Virus record (IMG/VR): IMGVR_UViG_3300022916_000011
Coordinates: 13,966 to 77,965 of that record
Strand: one strand, 5' to 3'
From: a virus
DNA length: 64,000 bases
The notes under the pieces: generated by a model
Seen by the model: only the letters and a program-made list of their open reading frames with translations
Database searches by the model: none
What the model was told of the DNA's origin: nothing
Part shown: in pieces, positions 1 to 16,702 of the stretch
Position numbering within the stretch: position 1 is the stretch's first letter
Layout of the letters: each line of letters begins with the position of its first letter
Made by a program: the position numbers and the translations under genes

Positions 1-312
1 CTCATCGACCCACATCAATTCATCTGTGTCATGGGAATCTCTTTCAATGAATGCGTTAAAGCAATCCACTACGTGCTTCACACAATGGAATCTAAACCCT
101 ATCTCTTCCAATCGTGCTAAGAGATTATCTTTGAACATCACACCAAGGAGTCTGGTATCGTTACAGCAGTGGATTCTTTTTTCACCATAGTCAACAAATA
201 AATGGCAAACCATTTGGGTTAGTGCTTTGGACATATCAAGGTACTGGTCAGCAACTTTATCTCCATACTGAGATAAAACATGATCATATTCCTCTTTCGC
301 ATAATTGTTCAT
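1..312 (-). CDS. hypothetical early-region protein, runs off window edge (MNNYAKEEYDHVLSQYG...)
   Basis: ATG at 312 preceded by GGAGGT SD; frame open to position 1. Confidence 0.7.
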   Translation of the reverse strand, partial: MNNYAKEEYDHVLSQYGDKVADQYLDMSKALTQMVCHLFVDYGEKRIHCCNDTRLLGVMFKDNLLARLEEIGFRFHCVKHVVDCFNAFIERDSHDTDELMWVDE

Positions 313-403
313 AACAACCTCCAATCTTCTAGGGTTTACATCAATGCTTCACTTCAAAGGGTGAAGTTATGGAAACCCTCACCCTTATCATCAAGCGTTG
401 AAG

Positions 404-853
404 TTACGGAGCGATATTCTCAGCAAATTTTCGCAAGTTACTCAATGCGGACATAAACTTGCTGAATTTCGGGTATGAATCGTGCAGGAGCTCACTGTAT
501 AACCACATCATATGTGGATCATTATACCCTTCATCATTCATGATTTCTATTTCCCGTACCAATGCTGAGAAATCATTGATCAGTTCGGGAGTAACATTGT
601 CGCTGAAGAAGAATAGGTCCCCATTAGCATCGTACTCTTGCGTGTATCCCAATTCTTCTAACCATTTTTCAACATCAGAGAGCATGGGATGATGTTTGAA
701 CTCTTCCCCGAATGCTCTGCACACATCGTCATAATGGAGTATCTTCACTTCATCAATGTTGTACCAAGGAATATCAGATGCTTTTTCCCCAATAACCATG
801 TTCAAACACGCTAACTCTGGTCTGTCCCAACAAGTCGCTCTTTCTTTTTTCAT
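404..853 (-). CDS. hypothetical acidic protein
   Basis: ORF; start moved to ATG 853, which follows GGAGGTtgtt. Confidence 0.75.
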   Translation of the reverse strand: MKKERATCWDRPELACLNMVIGEKASDIPWYNIDEVKILHYDDVCRAFGEEFKHHPMLSDVEKWLEELGYTQEYDANGDLFFFSDNVTPELINDFSALVREIEIMNDEGYNDPHMMWLYSELLHDSYPKFSKFMSALSNLRKFAENIAP

Positions 854-951
854 AACAACCTCCTTCATCTAAGGGTTTACAATCAATTCCTACATTCATG
901 CTCTTGACAATGTCCAGTCAAGAGCATGGTACGAGGGAACTAACTGATCGC

Positions 952-1311
952 TTATTTCACAGTTTTACCACAATCGGGACACACACCATCGTAGTGAGTA
1001 AATGAATACAGTGTCCCGCAATCATCACACCTGATAAGGCGATCATCGTCTGAGTAATCATCAAGGACCCACCATATACCCTGAGTCAGTTCAGCTTCTG
1101 CGGAAGTTTTAGCAGAGAGCGCACCATCCCAACCCCCTACCCATTTTTTGAACCAGAAGTGGAAGTCGTTCTGATCAAGCGCATCCAGTTTTTTGCGTAC
1201 CGTGTTACACTGTGAAAGGATGTCACTCGCATACATTAAACCATCATCAGCGGTCCAATCATTAACCTGTGATTCTACACTTTCTACGACTTCCAAAATT
1301 TCTTTTTTCAT
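952..1311 (-). CDS. hypothetical protein with C-terminal zinc ribbon
   Basis: CDDC...CPDC motif; GGAGGT SD before ATG 1311. Confidence 0.75.
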   Translation of the reverse strand: MKKEILEVVESVESQVNDWTADDGLMYASDILSQCNTVRKKLDALDQNDFHFWFKKWVGGWDGALSAKTSAEAELTQGIWWVLDDYSDDDRLIRCDDCGTLYSFTHYDGVCPDCGKTVK

Positions 1312-1325
1312 AACTACCTCCAATT

Positions 1326-1856
1326 TTACTTAGTTTTGACCAAACCAGACGATTTCGGTGGACACCATAACTTACCACGATCACCTGGACGTTTCTTCTT
1401 CTGGATGGGGTTATTCAACCACCCTTTCAGACTCTTCTTTTCTTTGGACAGTTTCTTGCTGCGCTGAATACCTGTTAGAATCTGGAACTTCTCGTTTCTC
1501 ACTGACTCAGCATGTTTAATAGAGACACCTTTGGAATGACAGTATTCACACAAACCGTCTGGAGCATAACACGTTTCATACCCGATAAAACCGGAACGTT
1601 TTTCGTCTGGTGGTGGTTCAAAATGGTAGGAAAGCATACCCAACCGTTTTCTCATTCTCTTGGAAGGTCTAATGCTACGAACTGAAGCATTCCCACAATG
1701 GACACACCTAGCAGAACCGATGTGATCATTGGACCCACTACCAGTAGCAGTTGTAACCCACGCAACCCTTGGAACCCACTGTTCTACATCTTTCGGGTCT
1801 GGACTAGGGGGGTTCAACCAATCTCTTCTTGGACGTATCATCTGAGTCGTACCCAT
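1326..1856 (-). CDS. hypothetical basic protein with CxxC pairs
   Basis: ORF with GAGGT SD; CVHC and CEYC motifs. Confidence 0.7.
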   Translation of the reverse strand: MGTTQMIRPRRDWLNPPSPDPKDVEQWVPRVAWVTTATGSGSNDHIGSARCVHCGNASVRSIRPSKRMRKRLGMLSYHFEPPPDEKRSGFIGYETCYAPDGLCEYCHSKGVSIKHAESVRNEKFQILTGIQRSKKLSKEKKSLKGWLNNPIQKKKRPGDRGKLWCPPKSSGLVKTK

Positions 1857-2222
1857 AACTGGAACCTCAATTAAGATTTTTAAGAAATTAACTGCTTGGA
1901 ACCATCAAACACCCCCACCATACAGAAGGTTTTAATGGCACCAAGCAATGACCTTGCTATTAACTACCTTTTAATGGATACAAGCGTAGTTCTTATAGAG
2001 GAATAGCAAAGTCATTCAAAAAAATTCTTTTTAAATGGATGCTCTGTCGGGTGAAATTCTTTTATCATGTACGTGTGGAACCCTAATCAAAACCTAACCT
2101 GTTTCACTACCCTGGAACCAAATGGTTGACCAGTATAAATAGTGGAGTCAAAACCGAGCGCAGCACAGAGACTCTAACTGGAGTAGGTTTGCTGAGTAAC
2201 CACGTAATTGGAATATCAGCTA

Positions 2223-2588
2223 TCACCCTTTATTTCTACACATCATCTTGGCTACATCACCACTGTCAACCGCACTTTCTCTGTCGGAACGGGTTGTCGC
2301 ATAACCCCAATGGAATACCGTGTCTCTCAACTTACTTACCTCATGCAACGGAAGCGTTTTCAGTCTTGCGGTAAAACAGTACATGGAACCTAAAGAATAG
2401 GTCAGTCTCTCTTTGGAAGCAGAATAGCTAAGGTCTTGAATGATAGCAAAAATGGAGGGTAATTTGAAGATACTATCAAAGCGGAAAGACTGTGTATCTT
2501 TGGAGTCAAACAACCTGACTAGATTGGTCTGGATTACGTTTTCAAGATGTGCTGATGAGATTAGAACGAAAGGAACCACCCTTGACAT
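2223..2588 (-). CDS. hypothetical protein
   Basis: ORF downstream of strong promoter; ATG 2588 with AGGT SD. Confidence 0.5.
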   Translation of the reverse strand: MSRVVPFVLISSAHLENVIQTNLVRLFDSKDTQSFRFDSIFKLPSIFAIIQDLSYSASKERLTYSLGSMYCFTARLKTLPLHEVSKLRDTVFHWGYATTRSDRESAVDSGDVAKMMCRNKG

Positions 2589-2757
2589 TGCAACCTGACG
2601 ATTACAACCACCCCTATGGATATTCTTCTCAAACCGCAAAGAAAAGGAACTAGACTTGCACCCCGTTGAATCAGTGACTTTCAAACTACCCATTCTGGAT
2701 CACCCCCTTTCTGAATGCTTTATTTTGTCGCTGGAAACTTCATTTGGTACTAACTTA

Positions 2758-2786
2758 ATACTACCAGAGTTCATTGGAAATGTCAA
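2758..2786 (-). promoter_or_regulatory. sigma-70-type promoter
   Basis: TTGACA-17 nt-TAGTAT on minus strand, AT-rich upstream sequence. Confidence 0.75.
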
Positions 2787-3621
2787 GTAAAAAAATGTAT
2801 AAAAATTATCTTTCTTGGGATAAAATTAAGTTAATTTCTAGGATAAAAAGTAACAGAAGGAATACCAATAATACTATGGACCTCGGAAGTAATCACTTGA
2901 TCTTCTTTTCCTAACATCTTCTTATATTAGATAAGGTGTCTCTTTGGCTATTACCATTGATGTAGGATGTACGTGCGTAGGTGATTCTTAGGGTTAGAGC
3001 TAGGATGTATGTTGATTAGTGCAGTTGTGTTAGGACATAGGTTAGCAGAGAGATTCAAAGGAATAATGTTGGGAGGTTAGGCTTAGTGCATAGAGTAGAG
3101 GGTTAGGAGTTGAGGAGTAGGTTATAAAGGTTTTTCTAGGAGAGGTATAAGAGTACAGGAATGAATATGCTGAGTATGCTCTGGATGGTAGCCCGTTCCT
3201 AAACATTGTTATGTTTCCGATGGTGTAGGCTGTAATCGATCCAAACTGCCTCTACAGAGGAATCTCAATATGATAAATCCTAATTTCAAAATGGACTGGA
3301 AATGTGAATGGGTATGCGAAAATACCCAATATATACCCAATAGTCCTTGATTCCATACCCAATCTTATACCCAATGGGTAGCCAAATATACCCATTTTTA
3401 CCCTCCATATTACCCAAAATAGCTCATTATATATAGTAATAGACACCTTGGAGCTGGAAAGATACCCCCTGAAGGGTAAGGGTCGCATAAATCGACCATG
3501 CGCTCGATCTTCAATGATTTCAACCACTTACAAAAGTATTTCCAACGTCAAACGCATCACCTCGTGCGTATTTGAGATTTTCCAAATTAAACCTTGATTT
3601 TCTCCTAGAAGTAGAGTAATG

Positions 3622-3634
3622 TAAATCATTGATT
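3622..3634 (-). promoter_or_regulatory. IHF consensus site
   Basis: AATCAATGATTTA matches WATCAANNNNTTR exactly. Confidence 0.45.
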
Positions 3635-4582
3635 AATGGACTATTTAAGTGGCTTACATGCCGATGCAGGACTTAAATACACAATAACAGATAGCCAAAT
3701 CACCTGTCAATCGGAAACTTTACCATTTCATTGCGGTAGGGAAGGGTAACTTAGGATGATAGTATAAAATAAAGGAATATTGGATGGCTTATAGTTAGGA
3801 GAATAGTGAGAGTTTGGAGGTTCGGACAAAGGAAACATTCCAACATCCCAAAAATTTTTTAGTCGCATAGGGTTTTGAATTTTTGGAAATGCGGAACTAT
3901 CGGATATCACTACATATATTATTTTTGGGGAAGAAGGGAAATTAGGCTCATATTTATTGGAAATACTAGCCTAAACCCCCCTTTATTCTCTCACTATTCT
4001 TGATTTACCCCTTCCTAACCCAAAATATAGATAATAGTGAGGTAAAAGAAGGGAAGTTAGGACCAAGTATATTAGACTATACTCCTTCACTTTTACATGT
4101 GTCTAGGGTTAAGGAGGGTTAATCAAAGTTTGGATATAGATTAAGTTTAAATATGCCATACTTTATGCCTAAGCCCAATGTTAAATTAACTAAATAAGTT
4201 AGGATGATGTTATGTTTTTCTTTATTCCTAAGTCTTAGCTAAACTTTGCTAGATTTCTAGGAATAACCCCCCTGAGTTAATTTTTAATACTTCCAAACTT
4301 TTTATCATAATAATCTTAGAGTTTGGAAGTTAGGAAATAGAATGGAAATAGGCCCCCACCCATACCCATGCATTACTTTTATCGTGGACGTTGATTGTGG
4401 TGGGGCTCAGACCCCTAGAGTTTGGACTCTGCAATTCATTTATACCCCTGATCCAAACTATCTAAGGTGATCCGGTGATTTTAGTACATTGTATAGAGTT
4501 AGGATATAGTTTGAAAGGGGCAGAATGTACCCCCACCCTCTTCCAAATGTTCGGAAGTTCGGCTGTTACTTTTTCTTAAGCC

Positions 4583-4616
4583 AAAAAAATACCCCCTCTA
4601 TGGTAGCAGGGGGTTT
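4583..4616 (-). terminator. intrinsic terminator
   Basis: ACCCCCT/AGGGGGT stem followed by U-tract, just after the stop of 4625..5011. Confidence 0.7.
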
Positions 4617-4624
4617 GTGGAATG

Positions 4625-5011
4625 TTAAATTTCTCGGGACACCCATTTGTCTTTATCGGTACGGAGGGTGATTACCGACTGGAACGAAACCAGTTTGAAA
4701 TCTTGACCGGAACCAAAAAAGACCACCCCATCAACCAGGATTACCGACCCCTGATCACGCATTCCCGCAAGGTGCGACCAGAGCGTGGACTTAACCTTCA
4801 GGTTGAAGTGATCGAGGACCCTCTTGTTCAGGACGGTCAACGCTTCACGGGTGTACTCATGACGATGGAGCGCACTGTTCAGGACCTGTGTACGGGTGTC
4901 GTACTTATGGATATTCACCATACCCCGCACCCCAAAATCAGGACGTTTAGCTTGGAATGCTCTCGTTACCGCAGTATGGACCGCATCGTTACCTCTGTCG
5001 TGATGTTTCAT
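4625..5011 (-). CDS. hypothetical protein, paralogue of 7129..7533
   Basis: shared blocks TRAFQ, NIHxYxTRTQVxNS, NKRxLxHFNLxxKST, SHLAGMxxQG, KWV; GAGGT SD before ATG 5011. Confidence 0.85.
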   Translation of the reverse strand: MKHHDRGNDAVHTAVTRAFQAKRPDFGVRGMVNIHKYDTRTQVLNSALHRHEYTREALTVLNKRVLDHFNLKVKSTLWSHLAGMRDQGSVILVDGVVFFGSGQDFKLVSFQSVITLRTDKDKWVSREI

Positions 5012-5067
5012 GGAATGACCTCGCTTTCTTGGGTGTTGAGTGAGGAACCCCCTCACTTCTTACTTAT

Positions 5068-5096
5068 AGTATATCAGGGTATGCAGGAAATGTCAA
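5068..5096 (-). promoter_or_regulatory. near-consensus sigma-70 promoter
   Basis: TTGACA-17 nt-TATACT on minus strand; hairpin AGTGAGG/CCTCACT follows at 5039-5057. Confidence 0.85.
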
Positions 5097-5137
5097 CAGA
5101 AAAATGCATTTTTCTTAGGAACCATGCACTTTTCTTT

Positions 5138-5530
5138 GGCTATTTTTTATACCCCCCCTTGTTTGGAAGTTCGGCTACTTTTCACTTAATTTCTTTTTTA
5201 AGGAAGTTAGGAACTCTTTTTTAAAGGAATTTTTTAGGATTATTAAACACTTACTTTTCGGACTACTTTTACTATTTTTTTCTTTTAAGGAAGTTAGGAT
5301 TCTTTTTAAAGGAAATTTTTTAGGCTTTCTTTTTCTTTTAAAATTTTTTAGGCTTTCTTTTTAAGGATTTCTTTCTTTTAGGAAGTTAGGCTGTTACTTT
5401 TTTTAAATTTTAGGATTCTTTTTAAAAGAAAACTTTTTAAGGATTTTAGGAAAGGCCCCCTCCGAATCTCAAAAATGAGTTAAACTTTTTTAGGAAGTTA
5501 GGAAACACCCCCACCCTAAAAAACAGCTTC
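5138..5530 (+). repeat. T-tract low-complexity field punctuated by AGGA/AGGC/CGGA
   Basis: repeated units such as ttttaggatt, ttttaggcttt, aggaagttagg. Confidence 0.8.
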
Positions 5531-5561
5531 CGGTATTTCAAGAAACTGTTTTTGTGGTGGG
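5510..5561 (-). terminator. hairpin closing the seven-gene array
   Basis: CCCACC..AAAAACAG / CTGTTTTT..GGTGGG stem directly after the stop at 5562. Confidence 0.5.
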
Positions 5562-5705
5562 TTACTTTCTACGGGGGTTGCGGTATCTTTTATCTGAGAA
5601 TTTTCTGGTTGATCCATCGGGGAGATCGGTAAATTTTTTGCACCTACCATTTTCAGCACTTTGACATTTGTTATATCGTATACAATCGAAACATGACCTT
5701 CTCAT
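5562..5705 (-). CDS. small Cys-rich basic protein (47 aa, MRRSCFDCIRYNKC...)
   Basis: manually translated; GAGGTG SD; same leader as neighbours. Confidence 0.65.
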   Translation of the reverse strand: MRRSCFDCIRYNKCQSAENGRCKKFTDLPDGSTRKFSDKRYRNPRRK

Positions 5706-5759
5706 AGCTGCACCTCTGGTATGGGGTTGTGGGGTTGCAGGTGCAACCCCCTGCTGCTG

Positions 5760-5942
5760 TTAAGGGGTATAGTAACTGAATGTACCCTGAATTGAACCGT
5801 CTTTGACAATCTCTACGCACCCACATGGGTACCATCTGATTACGTTGTTGGGGTCGGGGGTTTTTTTATCAGGGTACATACACATAACGTCTTTGTCTAC
5901 ATAGTCGCATTTACTACATTTGTGGGTTTCAATGGTCTGCAT
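5760..5942 (-). CDS. small Cys-rich protein
   Basis: CSKC and CGC motifs; GAGGTG SD. Confidence 0.75.
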   Translation of the reverse strand: MQTIETHKCSKCDYVDKDVMCMYPDKKTPDPNNVIRWYPCGCVEIVKDGSIQGTFSYYTP

Positions 5943-5996
5943 GATAACACCTCGAAAAAAGAATTTAGGGGTTGCAGGTGCAACCCCTGCTGCACG

Positions 5997-6221
5997 TTAT
6001 ACCCAATCGTATAGATATACCCTGTCAAAAGAAGTTAATTCAGCACCGTTGTTTTTTGCAATAGAGCGTAAATCGGTCAAGGTAAATCGTAACTGGTGTT
6101 TTTTATCAAGGTAACTTTGAACGTCAAGCATTTCTGCAATGTGAATAGATTGGTTATCTCTTGTCTCTTTTGCACCGCAATGATGCACCGCATGAAGCAC
6201 TAGCTCGACAATATTGACCAT
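5997..6221 (-). CDS. hypothetical protein
   Basis: ORF with GAGGTG SD. Confidence 0.75.
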   Translation of the reverse strand: MVNIVELVLHAVHHCGAKETRDNQSIHIAEMLDVQSYLDKKHQLRFTLTDLRSIAKNNGAELTSFDRVYLYDWV

Positions 6222-6250
6222 TGTGACACCTCGAAAATATGGGTTGACAG

Positions 6251-6367
6251 TTAGCTCACTATGAGGTCTAAAATCGCTTTGATCAATGGTGAGAAATGAT
6301 AACCGAAAGCGATACTACCGAAAAGACACGTTACACCTATGATGCTTTCAAATGCTAGTTGTGACAT
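6251..6367 (-). CDS. small membrane peptide (38 aa, MSQLAFESIIGV...)
   Basis: GAGGTG SD before ATG 6367; hydrophobic. Confidence 0.65.
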   Translation of the reverse strand: MSQLAFESIIGVTCLFGSIAFGYHFSPLIKAILDLIVS

Positions 6368-6443
6368 GGGAACACCTCTTATTTGGGGTTGACAGTTAAA
6401 CTTCAATCTGAGTTGCAGGGTTGCAACCCAGAATGAAACCGAA

Positions 6444-6686
6444 CTATGCAAGGTGAATATGGTTGTTCTCGTCAAGTACCATACACATGCACCTATCAGC
6501 AGCACTCTCGAAAACTTCAGGTGAAAGCATAACTTTTGAACGGTAGTTGTCGGGTACTTCAGAGAAGTTGTTAAAGTTGTATTCTCTCGAAAACTTCTCA
6601 CTGAGAAAGCGTGAAGATACTACACCGTGAATTGAGATTGTGTCGCTGATAAATCTGGTAACAATAGAGTCAAGTTCTGTAAACAT
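6444..6686 (-). CDS. hypothetical protein
   Basis: ORF with GAGGTG SD. Confidence 0.75.
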   Translation of the reverse strand: MFTELDSIVTRFISDTISIHGVVSSRFLSEKFSREYNFNNFSEVPDNYRSKVMLSPEVFESAADRCMCMVLDENNHIHLA

Positions 6687-6738
6687 GGTAACACCTCGAA
6701 AAAAGGGTTTAGGGGTTGCAAGCGCAACCCCTGAAATT

Positions 6739-7026
6739 TTATCTGATAGAGTCTTTACAGTATTGGTTCATTTCGCAGAAACTCTTGATAGCAGACTCAT
6801 GAAAATTTGTGGTATGACCAATTTCACCGAAAAAATAATTGACAAGTCTGGTAAGATTGTCAAGGTCAATTTCAGTTCTGATATAAACCATACCAACATC
6901 AATCAATTGACCATACTGAGAAATAATTTCTCTGATCATATAAACCATATCAATACTTTCATAGTTTTCAATAAATTTCTCAGCACTCACGTAAATTTGG
7001 TCGGTATCAATTTCTCGAATTTTCAT
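6739..7026 (-). CDS. hypothetical protein
   Basis: ATG 7026 with AAGGTG SD. Confidence 0.75.
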   Translation of the reverse strand: MKIREIDTDQIYVSAEKFIENYESIDMVYMIREIISQYGQLIDVGMVYIRTEIDLDNLTRLVNYFFGEIGHTTNFHESAIKSFCEMNQYCKDSIR

Positions 7027-7128
7027 AACTTCACCTTGAAATATGGGTTTGGTTGTTCTCACTTCTCAAGAGATTGCAGGGTTGCAACCCCTTGAGAAAT
7101 GGGGTTGCATTTCTGCAACCCCTGATTT

Positions 7129-7533
7129 TTAGCTGATTCTTGCAACCCATTTTTCATCATCTATGCGCATGGTGATAATGCTCTTGAAACTTGCGCTTTT
7201 GTAAATTGCGCTTGTGAAGAAACCTTTACCGTAAGAAACCCCATCTATGATGATGGTTGCACCCTGTTTTGACATACCCGCTAAATGCGAGTAAAAGGTA
7301 CTTTTGATTATCAAGTTGAAATGCTTCAAAGTTCTTTTATTCATTACCTCATGTTCTTCTTTGGTAAAATTGTGGTTTAGCAGCATAGAGTTCATCACCT
7401 GAGTTCTGGTGCTGTATCGGTGAATGTTAAAGACCGTCTTCACCCCAAAATGCTCTTGTTTTGATTGAAATGCTCTTGTAATGCTCTTGACTTTCACGGG
7501 TTTCTGAATCTCATTTCTGATAAATCTTCTCAT
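7129..7533 (-). CDS. hypothetical protein, first gene of sigma-54-type unit, paralogue of 4625..5011
   Basis: ATG 7533 with GAGGTG SD; aligns by eye with 4625..5011. Confidence 0.85.
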   Translation of the reverse strand: MRRFIRNEIQKPVKVKSITRAFQSKQEHFGVKTVFNIHRYSTRTQVMNSMLLNHNFTKEEHEVMNKRTLKHFNLIIKSTFYSHLAGMSKQGATIIIDGVSYGKGFFTSAIYKSASFKSIITMRIDDEKWVARIS

Positions 7534-7585
7534 TTTGTTCACCTCATATTTGGGTTGACGTTTTGTTGAACTGCAAAACTTATAA

Positions 7586-7602
7586 TGCAATCACCATACC
7601 AA
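7586..7602 (-). promoter_or_regulatory. sigma-54 (-24/-12) promoter
   Basis: TTGGTATGGTGATTGCA = GG-N10-GC with TTGCA, about 50 nt upstream of ATG 7533. Confidence 0.7.
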
Positions 7603-7640
7603 AAAACTTTTTATTGCAGTAAGAAAAATTAAAATACTTG

Positions 7641-7654
7641 TAAGTCACTGTTTT
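7641..7654 (-). promoter_or_regulatory. IHF-like site between sigma-54 promoter and enhancer
   Basis: AAACAGTGACTTA (imperfect WATCAANNNNTTR) in A-tract context. Confidence 0.4.
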
Positions 7655-7712
7655 TAAAGTAAAAGAAAATTAAAAAAAATTATTTTGCTGCATTGTATCA
7701 TGTGTTCAAAAA

Positions 7713-7828
7713 GTGTCTTATTTGAGACACCCCGAAAAATAAATATGAGACACATGCTTAACTAGCTGTTTTTGTTCACTTTTTTGTGTCTCACTGTTTT
7801 TTTACAATTATGGTACATATTGAGACAC
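7713..7828. promoter_or_regulatory. candidate upstream activator sites (TGAGACAC half-sites)
   Basis: near-palindrome GTGTCTTATTTGAGACAC at 7713-7730; half-sites at 7746, 7786 (inverted) and 7821. Confidence 0.6.
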
Positions 7829-8030
7829 TTTTTTATTCAATCAATTCAATATGTTAGCTGTTTTTGCTTCTGAAATTTCGCTCACACTGAACCAAATGGT
7901 CAAAGTCACATACTGGTATGGGTTGATGGGTTGCTTTACAGTGAAGGGTTGTTTTTGTGCTTCTCAGCGCATATTCTGGGTACAGGTAATGTCAAGAAAG
8001 ACCACCACGACCACTTGGTGTTGCCTCCCC

Positions 8031-8193
8031 AAAAATAGGCAGGAAATCCTCAACTTCATTCCTCAGCCTACTTCCAATCAAAAATAGGCAGGAAATCCTC
8101 AACTTCACTCCAATAAAAAATAGGCAGGAAATCCGGAGAAAAATAGGGGTCATTTCCAATTAACCCCCACCTAAAAAAATAGGCAGAAAAATC
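8031..8193 (+). repeat. direct repeats AAAAATAGGCAGGAAATCC
   Basis: 28 bp identical copies at 8031 and 8080; shorter or variant copies at ~8116, 8139, 8175. Confidence 0.9.
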
Positions 8194-8208
8194 ACCAGAA
8201 AATAAACC

Positions 8209-8238
8209 TTGACATTCTAGTAGTTGTAGTAGTAGAGT
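8209..8238 (+). promoter_or_regulatory. sigma-70-type promoter for the rightward block
   Basis: TTGACA-18 nt-TAGAGT. Confidence 0.5.
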
Positions 8239-8270
8239 AGTTCAAACATCAAAATAGAGAAGGGGGAAGG

Positions 8271-8429
8271 ATGATTAACATAGCATTCGGGTTAGGGGTT
8301 ATGGCCAGTCTTTATTTCACAGTAGGTTTTATCAGTTGCATCAAAGCAGCGGATTCAAGATATTCCACCTTTGGTTTCTGTTTAAGTATCAGTTGGGGGA
8401 TAACCGCTTATTTAGGGAGTTTGATATAA
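8271..8429 (+). CDS. small membrane protein (52 aa)
   Basis: manually translated; two hydrophobic segments; stop overlaps next start. Confidence 0.55.
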   Translation: MINIAFGLGVMASLYFTVGFISCIKAADSRYSTFGFCLSISWGITAYLGSLI

Positions 8430-8626
8430 TGGAAGAAGAGACTAAGATTGTAGTTGGTAAAGGGGATCATCGACCTAGTAGTAGGAATTGTATTCCTACA
8501 GATCTTGAGCTTTGTGCTGATAGTAGAAGAGAAGAATGCCCTTACTACATCAAGGTTATTGTTGATACTAAAGAGGTTAGTTTTTATCAAGGATTTTGTG
8601 GTTGGGGATTTAGAAAGGAGGAATAA
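8429..8626 (+). CDS. hypothetical Cys-containing protein
   Basis: TAATG coupling at both ends. Confidence 0.65.
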   Translation: MEEETKIVVGKGDHRPSSRNCIPTDLELCADSRREECPYYIKVIVDTKEVSFYQGFCGWGFRKEE

Positions 8627-8748
8627 TGTTTAGCTTTACGATTCATATTTGGCACTGGCGATGGAAACCTCATTTCTTTAGTTCACGGGAACTTCATGAG
8701 ATTATATTTAGTTGGTTATGTTTTTCTTTTGAGATAGATTGGAGTTAA
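8626..8748 (+). CDS. small Trp/Phe-rich protein (40 aa)
   Basis: AGGAGG SD; fills gap between neighbours. Confidence 0.5.
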   Translation: MFSFTIHIWHWRWKPHFFSSRELHEIIFSWLCFSFEIDWS

Positions 8749-8749
8749 A

Positions 8750-9106
8750 ATGAAAAGAATATGTGGATTTTGTCATTTACCATTTTCAGAAGATGCTATG
8801 ATTGGAATTGAGAGGGTAACTTTTGATGCGTTGGAACATCCTGATACTGAATTTTTTGCTTATCATGGCGACGAAAAAGATATAATACCTGTATGTGAAC
8901 CTTGCTATTCTGAAAAATCAGGAATTAAGAAAGAGTTTGCGAATTTGCCACCTTCTTTGCTGAAACATCAATATCCTTCAATAAAAGTAATAGAAAAAGA
9001 AAAGTATAGAAGTATGCCTTTAGTAAATCAGAGTGAAAGTATGATACGGGTTATTTTTACCTGTTCCATAAATGATTGGAGACAAATGCGTAAGGAGTTT
9101 TGCTGA
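8750..9106 (+). CDS. hypothetical zinc-binding protein
   Basis: CGFC and CEPC motifs. Confidence 0.7.
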   Translation: MKRICGFCHLPFSEDAMIGIERVTFDALEHPDTEFFAYHGDEKDIIPVCEPCYSEKSGIKKEFANLPPSLLKHQYPSIKVIEKEKYRSMPLVNQSESMIRVIFTCSINDWRQMRKEFC

Positions 9107-9453
9107 TGGATACTTATACAAAAGCAAAACTAGAAGAGGGTAAAAGAATTGGTAAAACTCCTTGGTGTGCTTCTGGTAATGTAGAAGCTTATTTATATAA
9201 TTATTTAAATCCACCTGGAGATAGAGAGCAGTACCCCCAAGAAACATATCATGAAGCACAATTAAGGTATGTAGAAGAAGGAGAAATTACACAGGAAGAA
9301 TATGAGGAAAGAATGAGGAAAGATTTAGAATTTCAGCATTGGCAATTAAGGAACATTGCTGATAATGCTTTAAAGAAAATGAAAGAAGTTGGAATTCTAG
9401 ATGAATATCTGTCGAAATATTATTTAAAGGATACAAATGATGGTCCAAGTTAA
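9106..9453 (+). CDS. hypothetical protein
   Basis: AAGGAG SD; TGATG coupling. Confidence 0.7.
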   Translation: MDTYTKAKLEEGKRIGKTPWCASGNVEAYLYNYLNPPGDREQYPQETYHEAQLRYVEEGEITQEEYEERMRKDLEFQHWQLRNIADNALKKMKEVGILDEYLSKYYLKDTNDGPS

Positions 9454-9661
9454 TCATACCATGTACACAGTGCAGAAGTGTTCTCTTACAGAGGATGAGC
9501 TTTATGGTAATAGTCATGCTAGTAAAGATGGATATGATACTGTATGTGGATTAGAGATAAACCATCATTGGTATATTATCAATAATACCTATGATGGGGA
9601 ATATAATTGTAAAAAGTGTGCTAAGATTTTAGAGGAGAATAGGATAAATGGAGTATTCTGA
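9437..9661 (+). CDS. hypothetical zinc-binding protein
   Basis: H..TVCG..CKKC pattern. Confidence 0.65.
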   Translation: MMVQVNHTMYTVQKCSLTEDELYGNSHASKDGYDTVCGLEINHHWYIINNTYDGEYNCKKCAKILEENRINGVF

Positions 9662-11945
9662 GAACGCTTTGAATGTATTCAAGAAATTGTACTTTAAGAA
9701 AGATGAAGGAGGAAATCTTTTAGAGGATAATCCTGATGAAGTATTTAAAAGGGTATCGGTATTTATATCTGATGATATAAATGATAGCATGAAATGGGAA
9801 AAAAGATTTTATGATATGATGAAAGATGGATATTTTAGACCGAATACTCCTTGTTTGATGAATGCAGGGGTACAAGAGAAACCACAGACAGCAGCATGTT
9901 TTGTTGGGGATATGGAGGATGACCTTTGCTCTATCCTGGATTTTGATCGTGAAGCAGCATTGGTTTTTGCTAGTGGAAGTGGGATAGGTATCAATTTTGG
10001 TACTTTGCGGGAAAGAGGAGCAGCTTTGAGTAGTGGAGGAGAAAGTAGTGGTCCTTTTGCCTTTATGAAAAAGTTAGCATCTACGGGTGAAGCGGTTAAA
10101 AGTGGGGGAAGAAGTAGACGTGCCGCTATTATGAGTATGTTCTTTGATGATCATCCGGACTTATTGGAGTTTATTACTATTAAAAATGGTGTAGATCAAG
10201 ATTTACGATCTATGAACCTTTCTGTGGCAGCAAGTGATGCTTTTATGAAAGCAGTTAAGGATGGTAGTAGTTGGGAATTGTGTGGTGTTATAGATGGTAG
10301 GATTAAAAGCACACATAATGCCAGAGATATTTTTGATCTGATTGCTACGAATGCACATAAAAGTGGAGATCCTGGTATCTGGTTCATTGATAGAGCTAAT
10401 GCAGATAATGGATTAAACAAACAGTATGGTAGTATCACCAGTACAAATCCTTGTGGTGAACAGTCCTTGTTACCTCACGGTGCTTGTGCTTTAGCATCTA
10501 TCAATCTAGCTAAGTTTGTAGTGGAAGATGGCAAATTTGATTATGAAAAGTTTAGAGAAATTGTTACATATGGAACTTATTTCCTCGATTTCATGATTGA
10601 AAAGAGTGGATACCCTACAAAAGATTATGAGGATATGGCTAAGAATACTAGACCACTTGGTTTAGGTATTATGGGTTTAGCGGATATGTTGTGTTTACTG
10701 GAAATTCCTTATGATAGTCAAGAAGCTTATATACTTTGTGGAAATATAGCGGAAGTGTTAACACAAGAGTCAATTGAAGCTTCAATGAAATTGGCAGAAG
10801 ATTATGGAGCGTTCCCAGCTTTTAACAATAATATTAATGGTATGACTGAATTATGTGAAAAGTTTGGTTTTCATGACGATGTACTCAATATTAAACCTCT
10901 TAGAAATTCTAGTTGGACTACAATAGCACCTACAGGTACAATTTCTATTTCTGCTGATTGCTCTCCAGGGATGGAACCTCTTTTCGGTATCACCTACACA
11001 AAGAATATAGCGGATTCAGATGAAAAATGGATATTTGTTAATCCAATTTTTGAAAGTTTACACCATGATAAATCTTGGTATAAGGAAGCAGTCGAGAGAA
11101 TTGAATTGAATCATGGTTCATGTCAAGGAATAGAGTGTGTACCTTTAGAAGTCAGGAGGGTATGGAAGACAGCACATGATATTGATTGGAAAGATCGTAT
11201 TGAAATGCAAGCACACCTTCAAACGTATATCTCTAATGCTATTTCATCTACTATAAACCTACCTAGATCGGCTACAGTAGACGAAATCAAAGAGATGTAT
11301 CTCCTTGCGTGGCAAAAAGGACTAAAAGGAATTACGGTGTATCGTGACGGTTCTCTTGACTGTCAACCAGTGGAATTTGAAAAAGAAAAAGAGAAACCAC
11401 AAAAGAAAGTAGAGAAATTGTGTAAAGGAAGACCTAAAATTCGTGACGGTAAAACTTATGAAGTAGCTACTGGACATGGAAATGTCTTTATTACAGTAAA
11501 TCATGATTGTAATGGCAAGATATTTGAAATATTTAATGCTGGTGGAAAAGGTGGAGGTAAAAATGCTGCAAAACTTGAGGCTATAGGTCGTTTAGTATCA
11601 TTGGCATTACAGTATAATGTTCCAATTGACGAAATTGCTTCTCAATTGATCAATATAGGGGATGGAAGTATTGCTTGGGATAAATTAGATCCAAATGATA
11701 CAAAATCAACACCTATATTGAGTATACCTGATGCTATTGGAAAAGTTTTGAAAAAGTTTTATTCTAATAAAAATGGTATGGAAGTGAATATGATCGTTGA
11801 GCAGGAAAGTATCATTTTAGAAGATACACCAGTTGAATGTGCAGAACCAGAGAATAAACAACTACTTTGTCCTGAGTGTGGGGGTAATGCAGAAATGAAA
11901 GAAGGATGTCTTTTCTGTCCTAGTTGTGGCTCAATGTGTTCATAA
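9648..11945 (+). CDS. nrdJ: adenosylcobalamin-dependent (class II) ribonucleotide reductase with C-terminal TSCPD-like and zinc-ribbon region
   Basis: PNTPCLMNAG, TNPCGEQ, RPLGLG, TTIAPTGTIS, KGITVYRDGS; C-terminal CPECG..CPSCG; no beta subunit nearby. Confidence 0.9.
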   Translation: MEYSENALNVFKKLYFKKDEGGNLLEDNPDEVFKRVSVFISDDINDSMKWEKRFYDMMKDGYFRPNTPCLMNAGVQEKPQTAACFVGDMEDDLCSILDFDREAALVFASGSGIGINFGTLRERGAALSSGGESSGPFAFMKKLASTGEAVKSGGRSRRAAIMSMFFDDHPDLLEFITIKNGVDQDLRSMNLSVAASDAFMKAVKDGSSWELCGVIDGRIKSTHNARDIFDLIATNAHKSGDPGIWFIDRANADNGLNKQYGSITSTNPCGEQSLLPHGACALASINLAKFVVEDGKFDYEKFREIVTYGTYFLDFMIEKSGYPTKDYEDMAKNTRPLGLGIMGLADMLCLLEIPYDSQEAYILCGNIAEVLTQESIEASMKLAEDYGAFPAFNNNINGMTELCEKFGFHDDVLNIKPLRNSSWTTIAPTGTISISADCSPGMEPLFGITYTKNIADSDEKWIFVNPIFESLHHDKSWYKEAVERIELNHGSCQGIECVPLEVRRVWKTAHDIDWKDRIEMQAHLQTYISNAISSTINLPRSATVDEIKEMYLLAWQKGLKGITVYRDGSLDCQPVEFEKEKEKPQKKVEKLCKGRPKIRDGKTYEVATGHGNVFITVNHDCNGKIFEIFNAGGKGGGKNAAKLEAIGRLVSLALQYNVPIDEIASQLINIGDGSIAWDKLDPNDTKSTPILSIPDAIGKVLKKFYSNKNGMEVNMIVEQESIILEDTPVECAEPENKQLLCPECGGNAEMKEGCLFCPSCGSMCS

Positions 11946-11952
11946 ATAGTAT

Positions 11953-11982
11953 TTGACTTTTTTGAAAAGATAATTTTATACT
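11953..11982 (+). promoter_or_regulatory. sigma-70-type promoter of the HNH gene
   Basis: TTGACT-18 nt-TATACT. Confidence 0.6.
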
Positions 11983-11985
11983 GCG

Positions 11986-12096
11986 GTAACTGAAGTGATG
12001 ATACCAAAGAGAAATAAAACAAACCCTGAGAATTCTTGCATCGTGAGGTGCAGGAGAGCTATCATCAGCTCCAGTTATTCTCAGGGTTTTCTTTTT
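11986..12096 (+). promoter_or_regulatory. structured 5' leader with alternative pairings (attenuator-like)
   Basis: stems 12021-12033/12077-12089 and 12034-12055 (GUGA loop); competing pairing 11986-12003/12060-12078; U-tract before SD. Confidence 0.55.
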
Positions 12097-12107
12097 GGAG
12101 GGTAGTA

Positions 12108-12845
12108 ATGAAAAATTTATGCGAATGTGGTTGCGGTGAAATAGTTAAGAGGAGATTTGTGTCTGGTCATAATAATAGAGGTAAAACTATTTCTGAATGG
12201 CAGAAAGGCAGGATAAGTGCAGCTAATAAGGGGAGGAAACATTCCGAAGAAACAAAGAAAAAATTAAGTAAACTTAGTACTGGTAGGAAACATTCCGAAG
12301 AAACAAAGAAAAAATTAAGTAAACTTAGTAAAGGAAAAAAACTTTCAGAAGAAACAAAGAAAAAATTAAGTAAACTTAGTAAAGGAAAAAAACTTTCAGA
12401 AGAACATAAGAAAAAATTGAGGGAAGCTAATAAGAATATTTCTGCTGAAAGACGGCAGAAATTGAGAGATGCGAATTTGGGGAGGAAACATTCCGAAGAA
12501 ACAAAGAAAAAAATAGGATTCAAGAGTAAAGGAAGAAAACGTACAAAAAAAGCAAAATTAAAACATTTTATTACTTTAATAGAAAATAGACAGAAAATAG
12601 GAATTACAACTGTAAATGGTGGGTACTGCCATGTTTGGAGTGATAGAGAGTACATTAATGATTTAAGAGGACCAGCGTGTGAACATTGTGGGATAACTAA
12701 TATGATGAATATTCATTTATGTGGATTTAGATTAAGTACACATCATAAGAATGGGAAAGAAAATTGTGCTCCCACAGATATTCAAACTTTATGTAATAGT
12801 TGTCACACTAAAGAACATCGGAGATTACATTGTAAAGAGGTATAA
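12108..12845 (+). CDS. free-standing HNH homing endonuclease with NUMOD3 repeats
   Basis: N-terminal CECGCG..FVSGHN; tandem [10 protein letters not shown] repeats; C-terminal CEHCG..HHKNG..LCNSCH. Confidence 0.85.
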
Positions 12846-12861
12846 AAATGTGGGTGATATT

Positions 12862-13227
12862 ATGAAATTTTATCGTTATCAAGATATATTCTATAGATCA
12901 GGACCAAAGATTGATTTGCTAGAATTTAAGTCAATCAAAGAAACCCCAAAAGGTTGGTGGATTGTGTCTAACTACGCTTATCCTAATTGGTTAGACGGCA
13001 ATCTTGTTGAAGAGATAGATGATAAAAGATGGGTATCGGCAACAGCAATGAAACGATTTGCATATCCAACAAAGAAGGAAGCACTTTATAGTTACAAGAT
13101 GAGGAAAAAAAGTCAAATTAGGATATTAAAAGCAAGACTATTGAATGCTGAAACTCTATTGGAAGAGATTGATAGAGTAGATTTTGAAGGGAAACCAAAA
13201 ACTTTTGAATTAAAAGGGGGTACATAA
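12862..13227 (+). CDS. phage hypothetical protein
   Basis: KETPKGWWI..KRFAYPTKKEAL pattern. Confidence 0.7.
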   Translation: MKFYRYQDIFYRSGPKIDLLEFKSIKETPKGWWIVSNYAYPNWLDGNLVEEIDDKRWVSATAMKRFAYPTKKEALYSYKMRKKSQIRILKARLLNAETLLEEIDRVDFEGKPKTFELKGGT

Positions 13228-13839
13228 ATGAATAAATTAAGCGAAATAGTTTGGGCAGTCGAGGTTTCTACATTTGAGGGTAAATTGTTTGAGGGATATC
13301 AAGTACCGCCAGATCCAACGGTCCTCAATAAAATTTATAATAATTCTGTTGCTATGAGCAGGAGAGATTGTGAGGAAAATCCTGAGTTCAAACACATTAT
13401 TCCTTATGTTGTTCTCACATCTGAAACCAATGATATATTCGTTACTAGAAGGACCAGTAATCAAACGGAGGGTAGATTACATGGAAAGGCTTCTATTGGT
13501 GTAGGTGGTCATGTGGGACCTATGCGGTATGTTACAGTAAAAGATTCCATTCATGTAGGAATGTTGAGGGAATTGCAGGAAGAACTTACTGGAATGGATG
13601 CAATAGGTACATCCTTTGATTTTCTTCCTAAATTGGTAGGTATATTGAGTGACAATTCTAATAGCGTGGGTGCTGTTCATTTGGGATTAGTTTATGAATT
13701 GTTGGTAGATCCTGATCGTATGGAAAGTATTAATATAAAAGAGACAGAAAATATGACAGGGGTGTGGATGCCTTATGATGATGCTCTCAAAGTAGAAAAT
13801 TACGAAAGTTGGTCGGCATTGGTTTTGGGGTTAATATAA
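13228..13839 (+). CDS. NUDIX-family phosphoesterase
   Basis: KHIIPYVV, EGRLHGKASIGVGGHV, RELQEEL, VHLGLV. Confidence 0.8.
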   Translation: MNKLSEIVWAVEVSTFEGKLFEGYQVPPDPTVLNKIYNNSVAMSRRDCEENPEFKHIIPYVVLTSETNDIFVTRRTSNQTEGRLHGKASIGVGGHVGPMRYVTVKDSIHVGMLRELQEELTGMDAIGTSFDFLPKLVGILSDNSNSVGAVHLGLVYELLVDPDRMESINIKETENMTGVWMPYDDALKVENYESWSALVLGLI

Positions 13840-14369
13840 TGGAAAAAGTTAAAGTAATAGTAGTGAACGGATTGTCACGTTCTGGTAAAGATTCATTTAT
13901 TGATGCTATACGCAAGAAAGTTCCTGCTTTAATCGAACATTCAACAATTTATACAGTTTGGGATTCATTACTTTATCTTGATATGATAAATCCTATCAAG
14001 AAAGGTCCAGAAGAGAGAGAATTTCTTGCTGCTGTGAAACAAGCATGGATCAATTACAATGAGGGTCCTTTTAAAGAAGTAGTACATATGGCAGATGAAT
14101 TAGAAAAGGAATACGCTTTCACATCTAATATAGACAGGGTTTTGTTAGCAGTTCATGTTAGAGAACCGGAAGAAATGAAGAAATTGAAGAGACACTTTGA
14201 AGATAGAATGTTTACTGTGAAAGTTACTAGACCTGAAATAACAGCGCAACCAGGAGATGAAAATGTGAACAATTGGAATTACGATTTTGAGGTGTATAAT
14301 GAGGGGGATTTGGAATACTTAGACACATTAGTTGATGCATTTATTAACTTCTTGAATGAAAGGAAGTGA
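13839..14369 (+). CDS. P-loop nucleotide (dNMP) kinase-like protein
   Basis: NGLSRSGKD Walker A; HVREPEE; YDFEVYN. Confidence 0.7.
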   Translation: MEKVKVIVVNGLSRSGKDSFIDAIRKKVPALIEHSTIYTVWDSLLYLDMINPIKKGPEEREFLAAVKQAWINYNEGPFKEVVHMADELEKEYAFTSNIDRVLLAVHVREPEEMKKLKRHFEDRMFTVKVTRPEITAQPGDENVNNWNYDFEVYNEGDLEYLDTLVDAFINFLNERK

Positions 14370-14596
14370 AAGTGGAAACTGATGGTTTAATGAGAACAGA
14401 ACTTTCTGGTTCCGTAATGTGTGAAATGTCTTCAAGATTATGTGATATTTTGCATGAAGCATACGTGGAAGGAACCCATATAGATATCAGACATCCTATA
14501 TTTGATTTTCCTTGTAAATTTGTAATTATTTCTGAAATAGTGGAAGCTTCACCAAATGGTGCTGTAGTTTTTTTTGAATTGCGGTCTTTTTCATAA
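14366..14596 (+). CDS. hypothetical protein
   Basis: GTGA overlap with upstream gene. Confidence 0.5.
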   Translation: MKVETDGLMRTELSGSVMCEMSSRLCDILHEAYVEGTHIDIRHPIFDFPCKFVIISEIVEASPNGAVVFFELRSFS

Positions 14597-14608
14597 AGGA
14601 GGGGAAAA

Positions 14609-15001
14609 ATGTTAAGTTTTCAGCCAATAAAGAATTGGTTATTTCAAAAGAAATGTGAGGATGACTATAAAGAAATGGTAACATCCTCTTCTACTGTTTC
14701 TACTGATGTCTGCTTTATTTGTGGAGAGGAAGAAAATGAAACACAAAAATTGGAGTACCTTTACGTTGAGACAGATCCTATTTATGGTATCATGAATAGG
14801 GCTATTTATCATAGGGATTGTGTCGAGCATATTGTGTGCAATTCTGAAAATTTACCAGAAGAAGGTAGAGAGCATTTAAAACAGGCTGTACAAATTGTAC
14901 AGCAATGGAAGAAAGATGAATTAAGAGCCAAAGAAGCTCAAGAGGAATTGGAAACACAACTATTAGATAGCAAGTTATTCCTTTGCAAGGAGAATAAATG
15001 A
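14609..15001 (+). CDS. hypothetical zinc-binding protein
   Basis: CFIC..YHRDC; strong SD. Confidence 0.7.
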   Translation: MLSFQPIKNWLFQKKCEDDYKEMVTSSSTVSTDVCFICGEEENETQKLEYLYVETDPIYGIMNRAIYHRDCVEHIVCNSENLPEEGREHLKQAVQIVQQWKKDELRAKEAQEELETQLLDSKLFLCKENK

Positions 15002-15085
15002 TATATACAATGATATTTGCATTGTTCATTTTGGTATTCATTTTGATAGATAGTTTCAGTAAATTAAAAATACGGGAGGGTTACG

Positions 15086-15379
15086 ATGAAGATTCAAACA
15101 ACACTAGGGATTATAGTTACACTAGGTACAATTGCTGGTGGACTAGTAGCAATAGACAGTCATTATGCGAAATCTTCAGAAGTGGAAGAGGTATCTGTCT
15201 ATATATGCAGGATAGAAAAACGACTAGATGAGAAGATACAAACAGATAGAGCTAATTCATTACAAGAACGAATGTGGCGTCTTGAGGATCGTTATACACC
15301 AGATAAAGCTAGACAAAAAGATGAGTACCGTAGATTGCAACAGGAAAGAGAAGATATTATTAGAAAAAAGGGAAAATAA
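15086..15379 (+). CDS. single-TM coiled-coil membrane protein (possibly holin-like)
   Basis: N-terminal hydrophobic helix, charged coiled-coil tail; GGAGG SD. Confidence 0.55.
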   Translation: MKIQTTLGIIVTLGTIAGGLVAIDSHYAKSSEVEEVSVYICRIEKRLDEKIQTDRANSLQERMWRLEDRYTPDKARQKDEYRRLQQEREDIIRKKGK

Positions 15380-15381
15380 CT

Positions 15382-15588
15382 ATGGAAGAGGTATTTTATG
15401 ATAAATTAGATAAGAAAGAGCATTGGGCTAAGAAAACCTTTAGAGAAAAAGGTGTTTCTATGGGGGATGTAGCCAGAGCATTGGGATTAAGCTATACCTA
15501 TGTCTGCGGTATGCTATCTGGAAATATCAAGATAACTGATGAGCAAGAGGAAAGAATTAAGGAATTGGCGGATTATTTGAACCAATAG
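15382..15588 (+). CDS. XRE/Cro-like HTH protein
   Basis: GVSMGDVARALGLSYTYVCGMLSG. Confidence 0.8.
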   Translation: MEEVFYDKLDKKEHWAKKTFREKGVSMGDVARALGLSYTYVCGMLSGNIKITDEQEERIKELADYLNQ

Positions 15589-15597
15589 GGGGTTGCT

Positions 15598-15828
15598 ATG
15601 GTGGAAGAAATAAAGTTAGAAAAAGAATCTTTGTGTCTGGATTGTGAACATTTGTTTGTTGCTACTGCTCAAGGGGAAAAACCAGAGTTATTCACTAGAT
15701 CGGTTTGTTTAAAAGATAAGGATCTTTTTGATCACTTATGGAATATGGCGCAGGATGTCTTTTTAGAAAAGAAAAATGACGCTTCTATTCCTCATATAAT
15801 TGAATGTTCGCAGTATTCAGGAGAATAA
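15598..15828 (+). CDS. hypothetical Cys-containing protein
   Basis: CLDC..C..CSQY. Confidence 0.65.
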   Translation: MVEEIKLEKESLCLDCEHLFVATAQGEKPELFTRSVCLKDKDLFDHLWNMAQDVFLEKKNDASIPHIIECSQYSGE

Positions 15829-15829
15829 T

Positions 15830-16702
15830 ATGAAGAAATTCGTGTTACTCGGTGCGGCAGGATTTGTTGCACCTCGCCATATGCAGGCGATAAAAGACGT
15901 TGGTGGTGAGTTAGTTGCTATAATGGACCCCTCTGATAGTGTGGGTATTGTGGATTCATATTTTTCTAATGCTGCGTACTTTAAAACATTTGAAAGGTTT
16001 GATCGTCATTGCTCCATGAGAGGGGATATAGATTACGTTTCTATTGCAAGTCCGAACCATTTACATGACGCACATTGTCGTTTTGCTTTACGAATTGGAG
16101 CGGACGCCATTTGTGAAAAACCTTTGGTATTAAGAGAGAAAAACCTTGATCAGTTGCTTAAATTAGAGAAACAAACAGGTAAAAGGGTTTGGAATATCTT
16201 GCAATTACGGTTAAGTGATGTTTATAAGAGGATTATTTCTCATATTAATGAAATAGACGATGGACATTTACTTGATATTTCATTGGATTACTTTGCTCCA
16301 AGGGGTCGTTGGTACGACTTTAGTTGGAAGATGTCTGAGGAACAGTCAGGTGGCCTTGAATGTAATATAGGGATTCATTTACTGGATCTTCTTTGTGAAT
16401 TTTTTGGTCATTGGGATATGGTTTCAGCTTATGACAAAGATATAATGGGAAGGAACATATACTTTTCTGTAGAATTTGCACATGCTACTGTTTATGTGGA
16501 ACTATCTCTTGACAGATCAGAGAAAAGGGAACTCACTATAGATGGAGTTTCTTTTGACCTTACCCCTAATATGAAAAATTTGCACACAAAGAGTTATGAA
16601 CAGATTTTAGCAGGGAAAGGTTTTGGTATTGAAGAAGCAAGGCAGGCTGTATCTTTATGCGATGAATTGCGTGATATATCTTTTGAAAGGAGGTATAAAT
16701 GA
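15830..16702 (+). CDS. wbpB: Gfo/Idh/MocA oxidoreductase, WbpB/WlbA-like UDP-GlcNAcA 3-dehydrogenase
   Basis: GAAGFVAPRH, DPSDSVG, SIASPNHLHDAH, CEKPL, NIGIH. Confidence 0.85.
   Translation: MKKFVLLGAAGFVAPRHMQAIKDVGGELVAIMDPSDSVGIVDSYFSNAAYFKTFERFDRHCSMRGDIDYVSIASPNHLHDAHCRFALRIGADAICEKPLVLREKNLDQLLKLEKQTGKRVWNILQLRLSDVYKRIISHINEIDDGHLLDISLDYFAPRGRWYDFSWKMSEEQSGGLECNIGIHLLDLLCEFFGHWDMVSAYDKDIMGRNIYFSVEFAHATVYVELSLDRSEKRELTIDGVSFDLTPNMKNLHTKSYEQILAGKGFGIEEARQAVSLCDELRDISFERRYK

Follow-up and report, generated by a model that had tools for sequence, protein, structure and literature searches.

Dunn and Studier are said to have given, in 1983, the names SRL and SRR to the arrays of short repeats that flank the 160-bp terminal repeat of phage T7. 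Reading the T7 ends directly, we find co-oriented CCTAAAG words on both sides of the terminal repeat, upstream of the A1-A3 promoters; we know of no established function for these arrays. In phage T5, the left terminal repeat contains untranslated repeat regions and the injection stop signal, and its repeat blocks carry paired DnaA boxes (Davison, bioRxiv 10.1101/866236). A word of two or three bases can also be read throughout a phage genome, as in phage CAjan, where dPreQ0 is found at GA and GGC (PMC7544227).

The locus described here belongs to a large uncultured phage represented by a 78-kb IMG/VR contig, a single assembly that is flagged linear, has no end repeats and is estimated to be ~48% complete. 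Our window, by which we mean the whole 64-kb stretch of DNA that was analysed, comprises bases 13966-77965 of this contig, and its gene content includes RNR, large terminase, portal and tail genes. No DNA match to the contig was found among 50,697 phage records, and the best matches of its portal protein, which are to Pelagibacter phages, reach 27% identity; by these sequence comparisons, the phage is no T7 relative. Matches to the large terminase are mostly intein-bearing Brucella phage genes and are uninformative on packaging type. Throughout, positions are those of the window, and GGM denotes GGA or GGC (TCC or GCC when read on the opposite strand).

A strand-polar field of GGA and GGC words

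The field that concerns us, and the features around it, are as follows.

5138..5530, plus strand: polar field, an AT-rich, gene-free spacer with words that are mostly TTWAGGM; 22 GGM on the plus strand and 2 on the minus strand
5165, 5202, 5289, 5381 and 5493 (5165..5503), plus strand: five copies of an 11-base doublet, GGAAGTT[AC]GG[AC]
4052, 4325 and 4553 (4052..4563), plus strand: three outlying copies of the same doublet, left of an inserted gene unit
2831..4582, mostly plus strand: gene-poor island rich in TAGGM and AGTTAGGM, a leftward continuation of the motif field; 59 GGM on the plus strand and 31 on the minus strand
5510..5561: long hairpin (arms 5510-5526 and 5546-5561) flanked on either side by A and T runs, closing a leftward 7-gene operon
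5443..5472, minus strand: weaker sigma-70-like site inside the field, 10/12 match; both minus-strand GGM words lie in its spacer
5068..5096, minus strand: near-consensus leftward sigma-70 promoter, TTGACA-17-TATACT, TG-extended, 11/12 match
4625..5011, minus strand: 128-aa gene served by promoter 5068-5096; GGA occurs once and GGC never on its message strand
4592..4613, minus strand: hairpin with a T run after it, resembling an intrinsic terminator, at the end of the unit of the 128-aa gene

An earlier note on this DNA had described a T-rich spacer of about 400 bp most of whose plus-strand GG pairs are AGGA, AGGC or CGGA, and the counts bear this out. The field contains 173 T, 106 A, 58 C and 56 G (T 44%, G 14%), and every one of its 22 plus-strand GG dinucleotides is followed by A or C (GGA 16, GGC 6, GGG 0, GGT 0), with 20 of the 22 in the context [AC]GG[AC] (AGGA 14, AGGC 4, CGGA 1, CGGC 1). 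From base composition alone, the chance that all 22 would be followed by A or C is ~5e-9. The strand-specific motif count that the note had proposed as a check gave 22 GGM on the plus strand against just two on the minus strand (GCC and TCC as read on the plus strand, at ~5456-5465), and across 20,000 mononucleotide shuffles of the field the plus-strand GGM count was 3.3 +/- 1.6 with a maximum of 12. In absolute terms, 22 GGM per 400 bp is the same as in the richest coding windows (21-22); what is odd about the field is that such a count is reached at 14% G, without GGG or GGT.

The local consensus around the words is TTWAGGM, with T or A preceding the word. Eleven copies of this 7-mer lie in the field, all on the plus strand, where the rate in the rest of the window predicts ~0.1; the two strands of the 64-kb window together hold 43. 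By form, TTTAGGM occurs seven times, TTAAGGA four times and the doublet five times, again all on the plus strand, and all eight copies of the doublet in the 78-kb contig are on that strand, within 4052-5503. The words are irregularly spaced (5-39 bp) and show no power at the helical period of 10.5-11 bp. A phased A-tract bend or UP-element array was rejected as a reading of the field because its 22 T tracts lack any 10-11 bp periodicity, and an SPO1-type phage promoter reading of AGTTAGGM was dropped because, by eye, no common -10 element follows the copies.

The field also contains internal repeats of 28 and 55 bases with 71-89% identity, for which Tandem Repeats Finder returns weak 14- and 28-base periods and nothing else. 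The diverged repeat copies retain each AGGM, and one A to C change still falls inside the word. An assembly or homopolymer artefact, which the note had named as what would overturn its reading, is ruled out because T runs do not exceed 7 bases and the pattern is a rule on the base that follows GG.

At its right end, the field overlaps the left arm (5510-5526) of the hairpin, which the note had also reported and which is real; from its sequence, it looks like a two-way terminator. At the left, promoter 5068-5096 stands ~40 bp from the field's edge, so that the field occupies the place between terminator hairpin and promoter. No plus-strand promoter for the field was found.

The note had taken the field for a left boundary; it is the peak of a one-stranded domain of ~4 kb and neither a discrete boundary nor a stand-alone element. 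Over ~1336-5530, plus-strand GGA is 2-5 fold enriched and minus-strand GGA is at 0-0.4 of expectation, except in an island at 2836-4582, and the field is the domain's maximum for plus-strand GGA (5.1 fold). The doublet and the 8-mer AGTTAGGM extend left past 5138 to ~3793. GGC and GCC are missing from both strands over 136-3135 and 4583-5137. In the leftward early genes (1336-3135 and 4583-5137), the message strand is nearly devoid of GGA and GGC and carries TCC in 2.5-3 fold excess in all three frames. Because the plus-strand enrichment of GGA extends to all three codon frames, it is not a matter of codon choice, and it speaks for positive selection. Within 3322-3415, ATACCCA(AT) occurs five times on the plus strand at spacings of 11, 22, 12 and 21 bp, with an inverted copy at 3309; helically phased and beside an AT-rich patch, this set appears from its sequence to suit an origin or operator better than the field does.

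Of known systems, the T7 array between the terminal repeat and the early promoters comes nearest to the field, and the likeness is a formal one. Read in the sense direction of the early genes (minus strand), the field becomes a series of KCCTAAA-type words ahead of an early promoter, in the same relative orientation as CCTAAAG in T7. Both are sets of co-oriented short words with the core CCTAAA, at irregular spacings of ~10-30 bp over a few hundred gene-free bases, and both lie upstream of strong host-polymerase early promoters, on the early sense strand. The likeness rests on a 6-base core. Unlike in T7, from which the phage itself also differs, the field is longer, T-rich and equipped with an 11-base doublet, and it is complementary to an adjoining word-free zone, whereas T7 has no such zone and its repeat contains the word.

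The word-free zone and its edges

Four further features define the zone and its borders.

5621..8022, both strands: word-free zone, comprising the leftward 7-gene operon and its control region
8023..8208, both strands: right-hand array, with three to five units of an A run plus TAGGC or AGGA on the plus strand, and 10 GGM on the minus strand
8209-8238, plus strand: rightward sigma-70-like promoter, at whose -35 the right array ends
5507..5526, plus strand: C-rich box with an A run; a direct copy at 8163-8182 is identical at 17/20 positions (85%)

Where ~84 copies would be expected, the zone holds two GGA and no GGC, TCC or GCC, and these four are the sole trimers of the 64 with three or fewer copies there. 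GGT and GGG are common, with 61 and 35 copies. Of the zone's plus-strand GG pairs 2/98 have A or C next, and of its minus-strand pairs 0/81. In the field, A or C always comes next; field and zone are complementary, and by this complementarity it is the word itself that is under selection.

The control region of the 7-gene operon contains four GAGACAC half-sites, at 7724, 7747 and 7822 on the plus strand and at 7786 on the minus strand, which look like candidate operator sites. Several of the operon's genes are followed by nearly identical GC-rich palindromic hairpins (5731-5750, 5968-5987, 6712-6731 and 7101-7122), variants of which occur at 6413-6429 and 7074-7090, and after each come a T run and then the next ribosome site, in the GGA-avoiding form GAGGTG.

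The note had regarded the field as the counterpart of the array on the zone's right side, and to the extent that the word missing from the zone makes up the one as well as the other, with a plus-strand TAGGM core in each, this is upheld. Its further claim that the two share the same polarity fails: the right array has 8 GGM on the plus strand against 10 on the minus strand and holds the doublet core in inverted orientation (8059-8075). AAATAGG is found in it five times on the plus strand and never on the minus strand. Since the right array is not polar and plus-strand GGM are common to the right of 8023, the two sides of the zone are not mirror images.

The boxes at 5507-5526 and 8163-8182 bracket the zone, ~2.66 kb apart. 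The 8-mer CCCCCACC occurs five times, always on the plus strand (1912, 4353, 4530, 5508 and 8164), where a rough composition estimate gives ~0.1 for the contig; two of these copies flank the word-free zone, and an A run goes with each.

The 128-aa gene at 4625-5011 and the first gene of the 7-gene operon (7129-7533) are paralogues with 53% identity, and one of them lies directly downstream of each array. They belong to a tiny unnamed family, with just ~4 distant homologues among 1.8 billion representatives; their domain also matches repeated stretches (17 and 11) within two long proteins. The structure model has three helices followed by strands, and its best structural matches are mostly winged-helix regulators, which suggests a weak winged-helix-like topology for the 128/134-aa paralogues. 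Because these matches are weak (Z <=4.9, Foldseek E >=0.5), the fold assignment is not secure.

Candidate explanations for the field

We tentatively favour the explanation that the field is an array marking, at the level of DNA, the boundary of a segment hidden from a putative reader of the GGA/GGC word, a factor that seems to read these three letters. The field would then be a strand-polar array of GGA and GGC (complement TCC and GCC), the word that is banned from both strands of the adjoining 2.4-kb immediate-early cassette and also from the message strand of the leftward early genes. Together with the 8023-8208 array, it would bracket a segment that must stay invisible to the word's reader, most likely because no phage DNA is exposed in the cell earlier than this segment, which would be a leading end or a terminal repeat collapsed by the assembly. 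That the zone may be such first-entering DNA or a collapsed terminal repeat, with the field as its inner edge array, we infer from the T7 likeness and from the 17/20 boxes. The array would act as an edge, by pausing entry, by serving in end processing or by blocking, in one direction, whatever moves rightward into the cassette.

The position of the field would also suit docking sites of a sequence-specific DNA-binding protein by which the strong early promoter at 5068-5096 would be regulated (early shut-off, for instance), with one of the 128/134-aa paralogues as a possible binder. The field starts ~40 bp upstream of the -35 element and another TTAGGA lies just outside it at 5115; the right array likewise stops at the -35 of the promoter at 8209, TAGGM words also stand upstream of the leftward promoter at 2758-2786, and the paralogue model points mostly to winged-helix regulators. 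We consider this reading unlikely, as the structural matches are weak, the words are irregularly spaced, 400 bp is long for an operator, and a binder of duplex DNA leaves unexplained both the one-strand ban in gene bodies and the two-strand ban over 2.4 kb. It is unlikely, too, that the field has no function of its own and is a by-product of the minus-strand word ban, T-rich composition and duplications of a 28-86-base AGGA-containing unit. Such an origin would account for the internal repeats, for a one-strand ban that the flanking genes have in common with the field and for an absolute GGM count no higher than in rich coding windows, but not for 22 of 22 GG pairs followed by A or C at 44% T, nor for diverged repeat copies that keep every AGGM, and the all-frame enrichment in neighbouring genes weighs against it as well. 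The low GC content of the spacer, in turn, would be expected of a transcription-activated replication start zone, in which the spacer melts and the KCC words on the displaced minus strand serve as primase start sites for a leftward fork. No 200-bp stretch of the 78-kb contig has less GC than 5186-5385 (23%), the cumulative GC skew minimum falls near the field, the polarity fits a lagging-strand template with the fork moving with early transcription, and the information content of KCC equals that of known phage primase words, which are GYT in T4 and GTC in T7. Yet a start zone is improbable, given that the annotated parts of the contig show no gene for a primase, a helicase or an initiator, that DnaA boxes (TTWTNCACA) are absent from positions 1-16000 and number 6 against 10.9 expected in the whole window, that helical phasing is lacking, that 3322-3415 offers a better iteron candidate, and that it gives no reason for 2.4 kb cleared of start sites on both strands. 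An iteron-type origin in particular was rejected because in place of 17-22-bp repeats at helical spacing (~11 or 22 bp) there are unphased words 5-39 bp apart; the adjacent, easily melted AT-rich part that such an origin has is present in the form of the low-GC stretch.

The note had further suggested a T5-like injection stop. What stands of this is the general style: as in T5, long untranslated stretches, dense in direct and inverted repeats of several families, adjoin small early genes (here leftward) that host polymerase reads from strong host-type promoters, and a pair of related, partly inverted repeat blocks brackets a variable coding stretch, like IRC and IRD in T5. Of the specific features tested, none was found: DnaA boxes are lacking from positions 1-16000, no A1 relative turned up in the 78 kb (of a contig ~48% complete), hhalign gives the 128/134-aa paralogues a probability of 0.3% for likeness to A2, and there is no sequence similarity to the T5 iss. 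A strict stop signal of the T5 type, at which DNA entry would halt until early proteins admit the remainder, is very improbable. At the RNA level, a plus-strand transcript with ~20 GGA could be imagined as a CsrB-like sponge, or decoy, that titrates a protein or nuclease binding GGA. Like CsrB and RsmZ, the field has many GGA on one strand within ~400 nt, there is a hairpin at the 3' end, and the early messages avoid GGA; unlike them, it has no plus-strand promoter and no Rfam match, it folds no better than shuffles (z 0.14) and neither does the opposite strand, the GGA words do not lie in hairpin loops, and the words include GGC, which is no CsrA word. We regard a sponge as extremely improbable. 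A transcription barrier, which the note had also raised, is possible and would fit the polarity of the field.

A protective DNA mark on the word was considered and rejected. The case for it is the likeness to CAjan, where a word of two or three bases that includes GGC is read genome-wide by a phage system (PMC7544227). In the 78-kb contig, no TGT/DpdA and no N6/N4 or C5 methylase was found, an upstream radical-SAM match is weak and generic, and palindromes that contain the word are not spared. Palindrome depletion across the contig amounts to strong restriction-site avoidance (CGCG 0 against 27 expected and GGATCC 0 against 10, with many further 6-base palindromes all but missing, among them CAGCTG, CTGCAG and GGTACC at 0 against 12, 1 against 17 and 1 against 15), and the fact that GGATCC is avoided like palindromes without the word argues against a mark on GGM. 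Guanine ADP-ribosylation by DarT1 was likewise rejected as the word's reader, as it has no defined motif.

To return to the boundary array, some observations weigh against it. The single contig shows no terminus, coverage step or terminal repeat, and the two sides of the zone differ from each other. In the other early genes the word is banned from one strand, which suggests that RNA or single-stranded DNA is read and not duplex; a simple model of first-entering duplex leaves that ban unexplained. It is possible, if doubtful, that we are looking at a leading early cassette from which one three-base word has been removed and which is fenced by strand-chosen arrays saturated in it; an undescribed activity, one that reads a strand and has a target of three bases, would then have to exist. 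Candidates for the activity would be a nickase, a primase-like enzyme, a defence nuclease or an RNA-level reader, for which the polar field would be a one-way gate or a decoy. If this reading holds, field and zone together would be a sequence-defined handle on how a large uncultured phage protects or stages its first-exposed DNA, and on which cellular or viral activity reads a target of only three bases.

Relatives and similar arrays elsewhere

Two metagenome scans for relatives gave no matches, and no usable relative came from viral-contig scans for which the paralogue, distant homologues of it or the neighbouring RNR served as protein seeds. Relatives of the portal are found on fragments of 5-10 kb, from which the region of the field is absent. 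Copies of the 128/134-aa paralogues with more than 90% identity do occur on other contigs, with lengths up to 104 kb. Scans for the motif pair and hairpin pattern recovered unrelated phages only. On one unrelated viral contig, positions 8880-9300 are densely set, in apparently coding DNA, with arrays of TTAGGGAAG-type words in direct and in inverted orientation, and these are probably the origin iterons of an unrelated phage.
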